DNA of 64,000 nucleotides from a virus: UHGV virus genome UHGV-0178594. One strand, given 5' to 3'. The notes under the pieces are model-generated. The model searched no databases, had not been told where the DNA came from, and saw nothing but the letters and a program-made list of their open reading frames with translations. This document shows, piece by piece, positions 9,974 to 51,494 of this stretch (its first letter is position 1; every line of letters starts with the position of its first letter). The translations under genes and the position numbers were made by a program.

Positions 9974-10785
9974 ATTGGCAGCCTCCTTTGACTAAGTTAA
10001 GGAGCTACCGCGTGAGGTTCCAATCTCAATGGCGGTAGCACTGACTGGGTTGGAACTACCGGCGTCAAAGGGAACCGGCCTGCCTTTCGGCAGCCCAGCC
10101 AGCACTACCATTGATCTCTGAGCTAAACGCTAAGTATGGCTGTGCGATGGCATGACACAAAAAAAGACGCGTTCGGCGTCTGTGTCGCCTTTGACATTAT
10201 CCGGGGTTCCAATCCCGGCACCCGTTTTTCTAAGGTGCCGTAGAAATATACCCCACGATAATGCCAGGGCGCAACTGTGTGTTTTCTTATGCTTTTCTTT
10301 TCTTCTTTTGGGCTTGCTTGCAGGCGTAGGCCATTGCTTTAGCTTTCACTTCATCCAGCTTTCCGGTGATCACTTCTTTTCCGAGAGTGACAAACCAGTC
10401 ATAGCAACCGCCAGTGATGTTCTGGATTTGAAAGTTGAGGTAGCGAACGGTCATTTTGACACCCCCAGCGCGAGTAAAGAATGCAGATTATCGCGTGAGT
10501 GGCGGACAACGAGTGATGGGAAAAGACAGTAGCTGTTCATAGTGTAGTGACTCCTTGCTTTCGGAGCCGCCATCGACTGTTCCACGGTCTGGTGGCGGCG
10601 CAATAAAGGTTGGAACACCGTGAGTCAACGGGGGCTTTTCAGCCACCTATATTGCACCGCCATTGGTATGGCGGCGGCAATCATACGAAAAACCAAACGG
10701 TTTGTCTCAAAAAGTTGACCGGTGTACCAATCGGTTGTGAATGTACAACGGCGAATCTCACAATTCAACTTAAAATGTTAGAAAA

Positions 10786-36498: not shown

Positions 36499-36950
36499 AA
36501 CGTCTCCTTTTTTACACGCGCGACTATCCCCCGGCTGAACCGGTAGTGACGTCGTAACTTCGTATTAATTAAGGGTTACAGCCTGAGCGGCTATATGATG
36601 AATTGAAAGGAGTTGTGGCGGTGGTGCCTCCACCTGCCAGGTTAGCCACGCCCGGCGACGACACTTATCAGAACGTAGTGAATGAAAATGGCTTCGTCAC
36701 GAGCGCATAGCCGCAATTACCACAACGGAAACGGCGCTCACGCTAATTAAACGCCTTTTCCTGTTGTACGCCGTGCTCTTCCGGCTGTCACACCGAATCG
36801 CCAGGATGGTGAATCCGCAGTCCGACGCTATGAACGGGGCTTGCACATTCCGGCTACCTGGTGTGCCCATGCAGTGTTAGTAAAAGGTACCTAACAGCTA
36901 CACCAGACCGCTAACGACGCATGTGCCATACGCCGTGTTACAACCAAATG

Positions 36951-37026
36951 TGGTGGCCCCTACCGGACTTGAACCGGTGACCGTGCGATTATGAGTCGCC
37001 CGCTCTAACCACTGAGCTAAAGGGCC
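36951..37026 (-). tRNA. tRNA, anticodon CAU (tRNA-Ile2/ileX-like or Met)
   Basis: 76 nt, GGCCCTTTAGCTCAGTGGTTAGAGC...CTCATAA...GGTTCAAGTCC...CCA; close to E. coli tRNA-Ile(LAU). Confidence 0.8.
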
Positions 37027-37455
37027 AGATTACTGTTAATTACGCTTACGCTTTTTGCCAGAACCGCGTAAGGCTTTTGCCGCTTGCTCTACCCCGTATG
37101 CAACCACCAGCAGAAACAATAATGTCCACTCCGGGTTTTTATCGGCAAACGCCCAAAAATCCATCACTTGCAGCCACCTTTTAAGACAAAACGCCATTGC
37201 TGTTAGGTTGCGGTGCCGGGTGCCTCCCGGTGACGTTAACCAGTTAACAATTAACGCCGGATCACTTATGGATTCTCGTTACGCCAGTAAAAAGACCACC
37301 TTTACTGTTTTAACTGTTCCGCGTGCGCTTAGCCGCATTCACCGCAATGGTAAGAGCATTTGGCTGACTGGGCGGCGATGACGCCTGTACGCATTTGGTG
37401 ATCCGGTTCTGCTTCCGGCATTCGCTTAATTAGCCAAATACTCTTAACGTTGCGC

Positions 37456-37542
37456 TGGCGGAGAGTAATGGAATCGAACCATCATCGCTTGCGCAATGGG
37501 ACGGTTTTCAAGACCGCTTGAGCACCATGCTCCCTACTCTCC
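37456..37542 (-). tRNA. type II tRNA, anticodon UGA (Ser candidate), atypical D-arm
   Basis: 87 nt; acceptor GGAGAGT/ACTCTCC, loop CTTGAAA, long variable arm, T-loop TTCGATT, encoded CCA. Confidence 0.5.
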
Positions 37543-37647
37543 AGTGATTGTGATGGTCGGTGCTGAACTCCGACACAGGGTTGTAGCAAGCCCCGCAAAG
37601 CGCGCACTACTGTAGTTGCGGCACATCAGCCTGTGCATTCATCACAA

Positions 37648-37725
37648 CGGTAAGGGTACTTCGTAGGGATTCGAACCCTCTGCCAAGCTCGGCGATCTCC
37701 GACGTCGCAAAATACCCTTACCTGT
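37648..37725 (-). other. tRNA-like fragment / degenerate tRNA
   Basis: Contains GGGTTCGAATCCC T-arm inside an 8-bp closing helix but no canonical D or anticodon arm. Confidence 0.3.
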
Positions 37726-37730
37726 TGTGT

Positions 37731-37806
37731 TGGTGCCGGTTAACGGACTCGAACCGCTGACATCCTGCTTACAAGGCAGGCGCTCTACCAACTGAGCTAA
37801 ACCGGC
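37731..37806 (-). tRNA. tRNA-Thr (anticodon UGU)
   Basis: GCCGGTTTAGCTCAGTTGGTAGAGC...CTTGTAA...GGTTCGAGTCC...AACCGGCACCA. Confidence 0.8.
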
Positions 37807-37810
37807 AATT

Positions 37811-37897
37811 TGGTGGGGAGTGATGGAGTCGAACCATCCGAGTCGCAATGACAGTAGATTTACAGTCTACCCCGCTACCCCTACGGACTAACTCCCC
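37811..37897 (-). tRNA. tRNA-Tyr (anticodon GUA), type II
   Basis: 87 nt; anticodon loop CTGTAAA, long variable arm, T-loop TTCGACT, CCA end. Confidence 0.75.
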
Positions 37898-37902
37898 TAA
37901 AT

Positions 37903-37979
37903 TGGCGATGGTGGGTGGATTCGAACCACCGACCGACAGCTTAGAAGGCTGCTGCTCTATCCTACTGAGCTACACCATC
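37903..37979 (-). tRNA. tRNA-Arg (anticodon UCU)
   Basis: GATGGTGTAGCTCAGTAGGATAGAGC...CTTCTAA...GGTTCGAATCC...CACCATCGCCA. Confidence 0.75.
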
Positions 37980-38440
37980 ACTTGCCGGGTACGTCTCCGG
38001 CGAGGGCTTCCACCTCCGTATGCTTTTCGGCGCACCGCGCCCTGGCTGCAATTCGGTAACAGGGGATGCATAACCCTGGCTTCCAGCGTGATTAGCGCCT
38101 TCAGCATGACGGGATATACCCGTTACAAGACATTATCCCAGAAAGCCATTAACCAATGGCTGTTACGCGGGAGGGACGTAACAGGTAAGGGCGCTGACCA
38201 GAAAGACCTGACCCTTCTCATTCATCTGGTTAATCACACCAGCGCCCTTGCCTGTTATGCCTCCCCGTTCCCTAATACACAGACGGGGACACTCTGCGGT
38301 CGATTTTTTGACGGGGGACGACTCATACCCCGTGGCGTCAGGCTTCTTAGGCCGCTACCATCATCAGATCATCGTTTGCATTTACTTTAATGGTCGGGTT
38401 CTAAACCGCCGCAAAGTCGCTAACCATGACGAAAACACTG

Positions 38441-38464
38441 AAAAAACACCCACCCGAAGGTGGG
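38441..38464 (-). terminator. rho-independent terminator (minus-strand reading)
   Basis: cccacc-cgaa-ggtggg hairpin with A6 on plus side (U6 after hairpin in minus transcript). Confidence 0.55.
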
Positions 38465-39290
38465 CAAATATCCCACTCGCGGTATTGCCACTTAGGCGTA
38501 TGGTCAACCTGGCAACTCGGTGTCCTCAACGGGGAAGGAATAACCCCGCCATACTTACCGCCGCGCCTGTCGCGGTTATCGCTACGTATCAACATAAAAG
38601 CCGACTGCCTGAGCAAGATTCACTTTCAAAGGCCCGCAGAAAGGAATCCATAGTCGGCTTTTATCTTGAAGCGGCTCTCTCTCCGCCCGTCACCGTCCTA
38701 TCCCGGTTGTCGCGTTTGCCACGCCAGCCGTAACGAGGTTTAAAGTCTTTTCACGTTTTCATCACTCGACTGCCGTCTATGGCTGTTCGTTGCAGCGGGG
38801 GTGCCTCCCCCTGGGAATATCCCCGGCCTTACCCCATTCTTTCAAGACACAATGCAAGGCCACATCCGCATAGGTGCATTACCGCAACGTTAAGGAGACT
38901 CAGAGTCAGCAAAATAAGAGGAAAACCCAACTCTGCGCCTCCTTAACGTTGAGGATGTGCACTGATGATGACCCGATGCAGCCTGGCCCACTTAACATAC
39001 TCACTGCCAGATCATCATCAATGAACACCATAAAAAGACCTTCCGTGGCTCAAGTCACTGTCGTTTACTCCGTAAAATGCTCTCGCTGAAACCACTTTAC
39101 GCACTAAACCTGCCGGGCATGTATTTGCACGGTGCCGGAGCTTTCCCTTACCTTAAAATTTACTTTCTAACACTTAAAATTGTTTGATGCTGGTGGGGAA
39201 AGACAATGAAGTGACTATCAAACCCGCAAGCGACATGGGAAGCTCCCCACCAGCACGAAAAATTCTATGTTAAGTTAACTACATAATCAA

Positions 39291-51167: not shown

Positions 51168-51494
51168 AGTTACGGCCTCGTAAGTTGATAAACAACCTGC
51201 GACCCGCTGTCAAACAGGTGGCAGGACGTGACAGGGTTGACAGACTGGCACTTACGAAACCAGCAGGCCGAAGCCTCCCCATCACGCCCCACCATAATTC
51301 GGGCGTAACGTGGTTTTACGGACACAAAAATACCGCAATATCGGAAATGTGCGGTTGTCCGCGTAAGTATTCAGGCTGTCAAACCTGGTCGCAGAATTTG
51401 CTACGACGGCATGAATATAAGCCTGAACATTAGAAAGATCAACAGAATTTTTATCAAATGCTGTTTTTTAGTGACAATGTAAATCATACATTCT

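Follow-up and report, generated by a model that had tools for sequence, protein, structure and literature searches.

A predicted (8/4) serine tRNA and a conserved tRNA-like RNA in the minus-strand tRNA array of the P1/D6-like phage-plasmid UHGV-0178594

Introduction

Inside a cluster of tRNA genes on the minus strand of the virus genome UHGV-0178594 there lies a short element that looks like part of a tRNA, and the question raised by this locus is whether the element is the debris of a lost tRNA gene or an RNA in its own right, and what the phage gains from it and from the tRNA genes around it. The whole stretch analysed, 64,000 nucleotides (nt), is referred to as the window, and all coordinates are positions in it unless another genome is named. 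An earlier reading made from the letters alone (the sequence-only reading) had described five tRNA genes, one of them an atypical type II tRNA, had taken the element at 37648-37725 for a tRNA-like remnant, and had proposed that the tRNA repertoire was expanded toward rare codons in comparison with phage P1. As a whole, that interpretation is partly supported by our analysis. The reading that we favour, and that we regard as probable on balance, is that the locus carries five tRNAs of mosaic origin, including a tRNA-Ser of the (8/4) shape, which supply rare codons, and that the element, here called module A, is a selected RNA which is processed and acts as a tRNA mimic.

Results

Structure and conservation of module A

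The structure seen at 37648-37725 is real and has a T arm, as the sequence-only reading had stated; its closing helix, described there as 8 base pairs (bp) long, actually consists of 15 bp (GGUAAGGGUAUUUUG/CGAAGUACCCUUACC) and, past a 1-nt bulge (an A), of an outer 6 bp (CACAAC/GUUGUG). The D and anticodon arms that had been declared missing have counterparts in the interior, which is composed of a D-arm-like hairpin with GG in its loop (GCGAC GUCGGAG AUCGC), a 3-bp stub at the position of the anticodon arm (CCG AGCU UGG) and the T arm (AGGG-UUCGAAU-CCCU). The helix of ~21 bp is predicted to close a three- or four-way junction with the invariant D-like hairpin and the T arm. The core folds at -33.6 kcal/mol (z = -4.0), and with the outer flanks (37640-37730) the fold reaches -41.4 kcal/mol (z = -5.5), a value matched by none of 200 shuffled sequences. 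The T-loop motif GGTTCGAATCC is present in six exact copies in the 64 kb, five of them in the tRNAs; the sixth, in module A, is the sole copy outside a tRNA.

The stretch that runs from CACAAC to GUUGUGAUGAA has the same sequence (100% identity) in the window, in P1 and in Escherichia phage D6, and the homology ends right after. Copies of module A turned up in 17 phage records and 615 plasmids, as well as in hundreds of E. coli plasmids, and a scan of one genome per bacterial species returned a single Escherichia contig only. A copy of 85% identity with compensatory changes is carried by the Enterobacter phage BUCT554 (Uetakevirus), where the 5-kb locus examined contained no tRNA. Scans of viral contigs with looser patterns added further divergent copies in other phage contexts (36 variants collected), including one on a lambdoid-type contig, located in untranslated sequence immediately upstream of a holin-like gene. 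In the lambdoid-type phages, as in Uetakevirus, module A stands apart from any tRNA gene.

The covariation analysis was based on an alignment of 17 distinct variants, in which the 21-bp helix was 91.9% paired and 11 of its 21 pairs had been changed on both sides. The observed covariation score was reached by none of 500 column shuffles, and sliding the partners against each other lowered the pairing to 34-54%. The conserved U.G pairs are possible on the tRNA strand only. The interior is conserved even more strongly than the stem and is almost invariant, with the consensus GCGAY-GUCGGAG-AUCGC, CCR-NNNN-UGG and AGGG-UUCGAAU-CCCU. Because module A is identical in P1 and D6, recurs in unrelated phages and has accumulated compensatory pair changes, it appears to be a selected RNA structure of enterobacterial phages and phage-plasmids and not a decaying gene. 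The label of remnant cannot be kept on these grounds, and the related idea that the element was left over from an expansion of the tRNA set fails as well, since it is part of P1 itself.

In P1, module A lies antisense to the annotated 3' end of plp, which also overlaps 30 nt of tRNA-Thr. The corresponding plp of the window (37616-37761, plus strand) is disrupted: a ~232-nt deletion, located at a 14-nt repeat, has taken out the middle of the gene and left module A intact, and the list of open reading frames (ORFs) contains no plus-strand ORF of at least 25 amino acids (aa) spanning 37616-37847. The overlap with module A and tRNA-Thr and the deletion in the window together cast doubt on P1 plp as a real gene.

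Assignment of module A to tmRNA (transfer-messenger RNA), to YrlA or to another Rfam family was rejected, as the Rfam scans returned no family at E <= 10 other than noise. A tRNA pseudogene was rejected on the absence of a tRNA-model match at E <= 10, on the identity in P1 and D6 and on the compensatory stem changes. Homology to an odd 'tRNA-???' of the virulent phage rV5 was also considered and rejected, the two sequences being unrelated.

In rV5 (L005, 1690-1788), ARAGORN reports an unannotated 99-nt tRNA-like sequence between the Ser and Thr genes, with a 4-base 'anticodon' (atcc).

The (8/4) serine tRNA

The five-tRNA observation was confirmed by ARAGORN, which called exactly five tRNAs, all on the minus strand and at the positions given before (Table 1). 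Four of them (Arg, Thr, Tyr and the gene with anticodon CAU) pass the gathering score of the Rfam tRNA model RF00005, 29 bits, and the Ser gene is best matched by another model. This is the gene that had been singled out as an atypical type II tRNA with a short D-loop, and the description holds: ARAGORN reads it as Ser-UGA, the best Rfam match is tRNA-Sec, and the D arm is compact. Identity as a tRNA-Sec was ruled out by the anticodon, which is UGA and not UCA, and by the RF01852 score of 44.6 bits, which is below 47.

The acceptor stem has eight Watson-Crick pairs (GGAGAGUA/UACUCUCC) and the T stem four (AUGG/CCAU). They are accompanied by a 6-bp variable (V) stem with a GCAA loop, by G73, by an encoded CCA and by a D stem of 4-5 bp whose loop of 3-5 nt contains GG. 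The gene is 100% identical in P7, 98.9% identical in D6 and ~90% identical in rV5-like phages, and relatives were found in T5-like and T4-like Klebsiella phages, an Acinetobacter phage and Felix O1-like phages. It is unannotated in the P7 record, no amino acid was called for it by tRNAscan-SE in the D6 record, and in rV5-like phages it was found by ARAGORN only.

Thirteen members of this family were parsed for structure, and all 13 have the 8-bp acceptor stem and the 4-bp T stem. Position 8 pairs with 65 as a Watson-Crick pair in 13/13, whereas 49:65 would be merely a G.U pair or a mismatch, and position 49 closes the V stem. One relative (L102) shows a double compensation, A8-U65 being replaced by G8-C65 and C-G49 by U-A49. 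The D stem covaries as well and occurs in four Watson-Crick versions (GAGC/GCUC, GCUC/GAGC, GCUA/UAGC and GUCA/UGAC).

A tRNA-Ser of the (8/4) type has been reported in bacteriophage tRNA clusters, where it was recovered with the tRNA-Sec model and has a Sec-like D stem and tetraloop (Mukai et al., NAR 2017, PMC5389517). With this (8/4) tRNA-Ser/allo-tRNA group the gene of the window shares the 12-bp acceptor branch split 8/4, the Sec-like compact D arm, the long V arm, G73, the serine anticodon, the location in phage tRNA clusters and the match by the tRNA-Sec covariance model, and we conclude from its sequence that it is probably a member of this known, little-noticed class. The carriers differ, being metagenomic and alpha-proteobacterial phages in PMC5389517 and enterobacterial P1-, rV5-, Felix O1-, T5- and T4-like phages here, and the D loop in the window is one base shorter than the rV5 tetraloop version. 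With the SerRS identity features, which are the long V arm, G73 and the encoded CCA end, and with the UGA anticodon, the tRNA should be a serine acceptor reading UCA/UCN.

The canonical tRNAs and the mosaic origin of the set

The gene with anticodon CAU had been called Ile2-like, and this was borne out. It is identical at 75 of 76 positions to P1 trnI, it shares 89.5% identity with the tRNA-Ile(CAU) that every one of the 5,426 complete E. coli genomes carries on the chromosome, and plasmid copies identical to it bear the name tRNA-Ile in the RefSeq annotation made by PGAP. Taken together with the acceptor pairs C4-G69 and C5-G68, which are read directly in the sequence, the E. coli identity and the RefSeq name indicate an Ile2-type, AUA-reading tRNA and not a tRNA-Met; its C34 is presumably modified to lysidine to read AUA. 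The Thr gene is likewise identical to its P1 counterpart, trnT, at 75 of 76 positions. The Tyr gene matches that of phage Ro157c2YLVW at 86 of 87 positions and that of rV5 at 80 of 87.

The Arg gene has a composite sequence. In an alignment with the Asn genes of P1 and Ro157 and the Arg genes of rV5 and TP1, its acceptor stem, D stem and T arm are those of P1-type tRNA-Asn, the T arm being an exact match to Ro157 Asn and differing from P1 Asn at a few bases, and its D loop and anticodon arm are similar to those of the rV5 Arg tRNA. The tRNA-Arg(UCU) thus appears to be a P1-type Asn body which has received the D loop and anticodon arm of an Arg tRNA.

The sequence-only reading was right in giving P1 no tRNAs other than those for Asn, Thr and Ile, according to the P1 annotation and ARAGORN. 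Relative to this Asn-Thr...Ile arrangement the window has Arg-UCU in place of Asn and, in addition, Tyr and Ser. The clusters of P1, P7, D6 and Ro157c2YLVW resemble that of the window in position, in strand and in the Thr and Ile2 genes. The enlarged repertoire is not unique to the window: Ser is present in P7 and D6, Tyr in Ro157c2YLVW, and Arg-Tyr-Thr-Ser-Ile in a few other P1-like contigs. Among the P1-like contigs with complete flanks, the first slot is occupied by Asn or Arg, Tyr and Ser are each variably present, and the commonest set is Asn-Thr; of those examined, a single further complete P1-like contig had the exact five-gene set.

The rV5-like clusters resemble the window in the Tyr and Ser genes, in an element of ~85 nt downstream of Ser and in the anticodon arm of Arg. 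They differ in gene order, which in rV5 is Arg-Tyr-Ser-(tRNA-like)-Thr-Met-Pro, in the P1-Asn-like body of the window Arg gene, and in the absence from rV5 of module A, in place of which rV5 has its own 99-nt tRNA-like sequence. The tRNA set therefore appears mosaic, Thr and Ile2 being P1 genes and Tyr, Ser and module B (see below) being related to rV5-like clusters, and exchange between rV5-like and P1-like tRNA clusters would be the simplest history.

In the D6 record (L001, NC_050154; 2915-3620), three tRNA features are placed on the strand opposite to that given by ARAGORN, and the tRNA-Ile2 gene (locus 1854-1929) is unannotated.

The tmRNA-like RNA

A second unusual RNA, resembling a tmRNA, is located in the same array as the tRNAs, just downstream of the terminator at 38447-38466. 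Its tag frame (38347-38379, minus strand) has no start codon and reads GCA AAC GAU GAU CUG AUG AUG GUA GCG GCC UAA, i.e., ANDDLMMVAA*; the tag of E. coli is ANDENYALAA. On the 3' side of the tag stop there is a hairpin, H5 (38328-38333 paired with 38311-38316), together with a pseudoknot (38319-38322 paired with 38299-38302) that is followed by a terminal hairpin. In H5 and the pseudoknot 6 of the 10 pairs have been changed on both sides, and the covariation score was reached in none of 500 shuffles.

Homologs of this region of ~150 nt are present in 756 phage records, mostly unannotated, which include P1-, Vi1-like, Felix O1-like, Klebsiella and lambdoid-type phages. The RNA is usually located within or beside tRNA clusters; in the Felix O1-like phage TP1 the tRNA cluster encloses it, and a putative promoter of its own precedes it. 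The length of the tag frame, exactly 10 codons before the stop, is the same in each of the 42 unique family members, and the other two frames contain stops in 42/42 and 31/42 of them. Among the family tags are ANDEQFLAVA, ANDNVFLAVA, ANDNTFLAVA, ANEEMYLAVA and ANDDLMMVAA; the frame has the pattern ANDxxxxx(A/V)A, with VAA or AVA at its end.

The tags are similar to those of the genuine permuted phage tmRNAs L300 and L251. ARAGORN called permuted tmRNAs in 13 of 204 tag-bearing viral loci. Bona fide examples come from some metagenomic viral contigs; they contain G3.U70, a T arm and ACCA and encode tags like ANDEQFLMVA or ANDNSYRMVA. Measured against the L300 tag ANDEQFLMVA, the enteric ANDEQFLAVA has five synonymous codon differences and one non-synonymous difference. 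The invariant length of 10 codons, the stops in the other frames and this comparison with L300 point to coding constraint on the tag; in a count of synonymous and non-synonymous differences across the family, for which the pairs are non-independent, a shifted frame scored similarly.

Further likeness to permuted tmRNA is seen in the start-less frame of 10 codons that follows UAAAU (UAAAU/GCA AAC GAU), in the stop followed by a hairpin and pseudoknot, and in the 5' GUUUUCG, which is like the tmRNA D-loop motif GUUUCGAC; taken as (A)GUUUUCG, it aligns with the D-loop motif AUAGUUUCGAC of genuine permuted genes. The RNA differs from permuted tmRNA in that 38262-38436 contains nothing assignable as acceptor strands, T arm or CCA, and the Rfam tmRNA models score it far below threshold, at best 24-29 bits against 47. 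ARAGORN detected no tmRNA in the window, in the lambdoid loci examined, in the Felix O1-like TP1 or in the Vi1-like locus. Inspection for an acceptor stem that could pair the 5' end of the tmRNA-like RNA with module A or with the stem frames gave no pairing shared consistently by the lineages. A 749-nt 'permuted tmRNA' called by ARAGORN in the Felix O1-like contig L327 was judged spurious, being made of a tRNA-like 3' half and part of a tRNA-Lys.

Module A and the tmRNA-like RNA are often found together. In 8 of 18 non-P1 loci module A lies directly 5' or 3' of the tmRNA-like RNA, at less than 300 nt and on the same strand, and 83 of the 96 loci with P1-type copies include the tmRNA-like RNA at ~470-680 nt from module A. 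A literature search on P1 ban-operon RNAs or 'tmRNA-like' phage RNAs found nothing relevant, and the supplements of the 2025 tmRNA database paper contain no phage list.

In Salmonella phage PhiSH19 (L136, 1300-1900) several unannotated tRNA-like structures surround the tmRNA-like RNA. In one of them a hairpin and a T arm are enclosed by a closing helix of 16 bp, which is the architecture of module A in another sequence.

Layout of the array and the long-stem modules

The best BLAST match of the locus region was Escherichia phage D6 (84% of 1.8 kb covered, 92.9% identity), followed by P7, P1 and other Punavirus-type phage-plasmids. The array at 36.7-38.5 kb on the minus strand is a series of largely untranslated, co-oriented small RNA genes of a P1/D6-like phage-plasmid, and it occupies the position of the P1 tRNA/tci segment. 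The homologous segment of P1 has the order dmt, 'dicF-like region', trnA(Asn), trnT(Thr), plp/upl (other strand), tciA/B/C, trnI(Ile2) and ban, of which D6 and Ro157c2YLVW carry variants. By comparison of the P1 annotation with the ORF list, the window is without tciA/tciB, upl and an intact plp. The terminator maps to the 3' end of the 'dicF-like region' annotated in P1, as judged from that annotation and coordinate mapping. The features are collected in Table 1.

Table 1. Features of the minus-strand small RNA array of UHGV-0178594, in the order of transcription
Feature	Position	Strand	Evidence and remarks
Intrinsic terminator hairpin	38447..38466	-	Terminator scan; GCCCACC-UUCG-GGUGGGU and U run; just upstream of the tmRNA-like RNA
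tmRNA-like RNA, no recognisable tRNA-like domain	38262..38436	-	Sub-threshold tmRNA_permuted match, 24.1 bits, E = 0.009
Module C, long hairpin	38169..38266	-	Inverted repeat I3; fold -52.7 kcal/mol, z = -5.8
tRNA-Arg, anticodon UCU, reads AGA/AGG	37903..37979	-	ARAGORN; Rfam tRNA 72.1 bits
tRNA-Tyr (GUA), type II, CCA encoded	37811..37897	-	ARAGORN; Rfam 43.8 bits
tRNA-Thr (UGU, reads ACA)	37731..37806	-	ARAGORN; Rfam 74.9 bits
tRNA-like module A (core 37648-37725)	37640..37730	-	Fold, conservation, covariation
Structured spacer, module A to tRNA-Ser	37543..37647	-	Closed by UUGUGAUGA/CCAUCACAA; weak fold, z = -1.4
Predicted (8/4) tRNA-Ser, anticodon UGA, reads UCA/UCN	37456..37542	-	ARAGORN; tRNA-Sec model 44.6 bits vs cut-off 47
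Module B, long-stem RNA directly 3' of tRNA-Ser	37340..37457	-	Inverted repeat I1; fold -47 kcal/mol, z = -5.3
STnc100/PasD-like prophage small RNA region	37209..37346	-	Rfam RF02076 40.8 bits vs gathering score 47, E = 5.6e-7; sub-threshold
Small ORF, TciC-like product	37036..37197	-	ORF list; BLASTP 39% identity over 33 aa to P1 TciC, E = 3e-8
tRNA-Ile2 (CAU)	36951..37026	-	ARAGORN (label Met); Rfam 66.7 bits
Module D, minimal stem frame	36700..36767	-	ACAACAGGAAAAGGCG...CGCCGUUUCCGUUGU then GGUAAUUGC; direct repeats D4-D6; weak fold, z = -1.9

Together with B, C and D on the same strand, module A makes up a set of four long-stem modules with related arms and unrelated interiors; the arms share the pattern ACAACAGGyAAGGG...CCCUUACCGUUGU. 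The arms of module C (AACAGGCAAGGG...CCCUUACCUGUU) are related to those of module A and enclose a different interior, and the pattern AACAGGYAAGGG has exact matches only at 37715, 38180 and 38245. Modules A, B and D are followed by the motif G(G/A)UGAAUGC and a small hairpin. The same stem frame carries other inserts in other phages, some of them with T-arm-like hairpins, in the manner of a cassette slot. The 3' arms of many module copies read UGCUCUUU/UGCUCUUA, which we take to be boxA-like.

The spacer at 37543-37647 starts with the recurring motif GUGAUGAAUGC and a small hairpin and is 99% identical to the other strand of the P1 upl/plp junction; its hairpin GCAC-AGGCUGAU-GUGC becomes GCGC-AGGCUGAU-GCGC in BUCT554. 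The interior of module B is conserved downstream of the rV5-like Ser gene, where the closing helix, as judged from the fold, is of unrelated sequence, and the BLAST match to rV5-like phages spans 37373-37542, i.e., Ser and module B. Single-sequence folds were used for module B, since RNAalifold missed the non-homologous closing stems.

The STnc100/PasD-like match and the TciC-like small ORF are located between module B and tRNA-Ile2. The STnc100 and Pas small RNAs are prophage-borne and often close to tRNA matches, and STnc100 is related to PasD (bioRxiv 10.64898/2026.05.13.724894).

Codon usage

Codon usage was counted in the 41 long ORFs of the window and compared with approximate E. coli reference values. 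The frequencies per thousand were 6.3 for AGA, 4.4 for AGG, 11.4 for AUA, 15.7 for ACA and 11.5 for UCA, against roughly 2.1, 1.2, 4.3, 7.1 and 7.1 in E. coli, so that the codons read by four of the five tRNAs are 1.6-3 times commoner in the window ORFs than in E. coli by these values. The proposed expansion toward rare codons is upheld in part by these counts: the repertoire is larger than that of P1 and AGA, AGG, AUA, ACA and UCA are enriched, but Tyr codons are not.

Discussion

Our results suggest an order of events for module A. The element would be cut from a polycistronic RNA by way of its ~21-bp stem, the length of which is that of an RNase III substrate, and the product would be an anticodon-less tRNA mimic whose D-like and T loops may form an elbow for a host factor that handles tRNA or tmRNA. 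SmpB would be the leading candidate partner, because module A resembles the tRNA-like domain of tmRNA without the anticodon arm and travels with a tmRNA-like RNA. The tRNAs would chiefly increase the capacity to decode AGA/AGG, AUA, ACA and UCA, codons that are used more by the phage than by its host.

Several observations weigh against this account, on which we place somewhat more confidence than doubt. RNase III cleavage and SmpB binding of module A are deduced from its shape alone, and the alanine pair G3.U70 and a free CCA end are both absent from it, which rules it out as a tRNA-like domain that could be charged. The general tRNA, tmRNA and YrlA models give it no score, its internal hairpins are invariant, which makes covariation uninformative on them, and 10 of the 18 non-P1 copies have no tmRNA-like RNA nearby. 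For the array, a terminator stands upstream at 38447-38466 and no sigma-70-like promoter was detected in a scan of 36.4-38.8 kb. In the serine tRNA, the preference for 8/4 over 7/5 draws its support from the single compensating sequence L102. The E. coli codon values are approximate, and the lack of enrichment of Tyr codons means that the supply of rare codons is not the whole story and leaves room for a role as spare tRNAs.

Two known families come close to module A. A phage RNA that is little more than the tRNA-like domain (TLD) of tmRNA is on record in mycobacteriophage DS6A, and a molecule similar to this RNA strongly inhibits tmRNA, perhaps by titration of SmpB (PMC4131195). Module A resembles the TLD and the DS6A RNA in being phage-encoded, in having a T arm and an acceptor-type helix without an anticodon arm, and in its proximity to a tmRNA-like tag frame. 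It differs from them in a helix of 15-21 bp instead of 7 bp, in a stemmed D-like hairpin and in the lack of a match by ARAGORN or the Rfam tmRNA models. The third pair of module A (16:86), at the place of G3.U70 in a TLD, is U-A in copies of the P1 type and mostly U.U elsewhere, and the 3' strand runs on into GUUGUG without CCA, where a TLD ends in a free ACCA.

The second family is that of YrlA and the Y RNAs (RF02553), with which module A shares a tRNA-like D/T elbow on a long terminal helix. The order in YrlA is permuted (T arm, closed acceptor hairpin, D arm), whereas module A has the normal order of arms and no acceptor hairpin. The model RF02553 gave no match on 37640-37730 and only a weak match across the Tyr/Thr junction, and Felix O1-like phages were the only ones to show a YrlA-like order. 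Module A fails on G3.U70 and CCA for the TLD and on permuted order and model match for the Y RNAs, and it fits no family. The novel parts of the locus are the tRNA-like module A and the neighbouring tmRNA-like RNA; the tRNAs range from ordinary to known types, and their cluster appears to be a new combination of known P1-like and rV5-like genes.

A permuted tRNA-like element was observed in two Felix O1-like phages, Escherichia typing phage 1 (L137, ~940-1010) and L327 (55-140). It consists of a T arm, a closed acceptor-type hairpin and a D arm, in the order of the YrlA Y RNA, and the hairpin covaries between the two phages (ACCCUUC/GAAGGGU versus ACUCG/CGAGU).

The main alternative to a selected tRNA mimic is that modules A to D are chiefly processing or transcription signals, i.e., RNase III-type stems and/or boxA-like anti-Rho elements, and that their interiors are passengers. 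Such signals would account for four long-stem modules with related arms and unrelated interiors, for the other cargos found in other phages, for stems of ~21 bp, which suit RNase III, and for 3' arms that recall boxA. The passengers, however, should not be conserved better than their vehicle, and in module A the interior outconserves the stem across distant phages; a boxA buried in a helix would also be poorly available to NusB/E. We regard this alternative as doubtful.

For the tRNAs, codon supply has to be weighed against a function chiefly as spares that replace tRNAs destroyed by tRNA-cleaving weapons such as anticodon nucleases, colicins D and E5 and retron- or PARIS-type defences. Colicin E5 cleaves Tyr and Asn tRNAs and colicin D cleaves Arg tRNAs, and phage tRNAs are known to counter defences that target tRNAs. 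The presence of a Tyr tRNA without enrichment of Tyr codons would be explained in this way, as would the alternation of Asn and Arg in the first slot, the bodies of the (8/4) Ser and the chimeric Arg, which are unlike those of host tRNAs, and the position of the P1 tRNAs around tciA/B/C, annotated as 'tellurite or colicin resistance'. Set against this, four of the five tRNAs match codons enriched in the phage and the anticodon loops look ordinary, and we consider it unlikely that replacement, and not codon matching, is the chief role.

A more far-reaching proposal is that module A and the tmRNA-like RNA form one phage system acting on trans-translation, either as a split tmRNA, with a tRNA-like piece and a tag-template piece, or as decoys that titrate SmpB or tmRNA. 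We hold this to be rather unlikely. If it is true, the pair would represent a new phage route to the manipulation of the translation quality control of the host, and it would be testable in P1.

The remaining readings of module A fit poorly. The stem frames could be boundaries of modules at the DNA level, or linkers for recombination, in which case the hairpins would be incidental to cassette exchange; the sharp homology breakpoints at the module edges and the same flanks around different inserts agree with this. Recombination linkers have no need of self-complementarity, however, and the pairing is maintained by covariation even where both arms have departed from the consensus (L127, L130), with a G.U asymmetry that points to one transcribed strand; incidental hairpins are therefore improbable. 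The conservation of module A could also be attributed to an antisense protein gene, the putative lipoprotein gene plp, as the 3' end of plp is annotated across module A and 30 nt into tRNA-Thr in P1 and a hypothetical coding sequence is annotated antisense to the copy in BUCT554. This is hardly credible, since module A is base-perfect in the window in spite of the ~232-nt plp deletion and the absence of a plus-strand ORF over 37616-37847, the D6 annotation is empty at module A, and the paired double changes and the U.G wobbles, which would be A.C on the other strand, fit RNA pairing and not codons. A functionless tRNA pseudogene, decaying after a rearrangement of the cluster, would agree with a perfect T arm and a D-arm-like hairpin kept without an anticodon arm, with the place directly 3' of tRNA-Thr in P1-like genomes and with the recombination junction at the 3' edge of module A in the window, but it is scarcely to be reconciled with 100% identity across the window, P1 and D6, with copies in unrelated phages that have no adjacent tRNA, or with many compensatory stem doubles around an invariant interior, where a neutral relic is expected to gain disruptive changes.

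Under the favoured reading, in which module A is a selected tRNA mimic beside a mosaic tRNA set, the locus bears on several wider points. P1-like phage-plasmids would shuffle tRNA cassettes with virulent rV5-like phages and remodel the body of a tRNA, as in the change from Asn to Arg-UCU. The 8/4 shape of the serine tRNA would be frequent among enterobacterial phages that have been studied well, although annotation pipelines give it a wrong label there or overlook it. Module A would be a conserved structured RNA lying under the annotated gene plp of P1, whose genome is among the best known of all phages, and it would be one of a family of long-stem cassettes found in many phages with different small RNAs as cargo.

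Elsewhere in the window, two C4 antisense RNA genes were found on the minus strand, at 10028-10238 and 51214-51420, one of them beside an isrK-like RNA and the other beside an a1/b1 target element. The presence of two C4 genes in 64 kb suggests two immI-type loci, and the two C4 antisense RNAs and the isrK match, all from Rfam, are consistent with a P1-like organisation of immunity.

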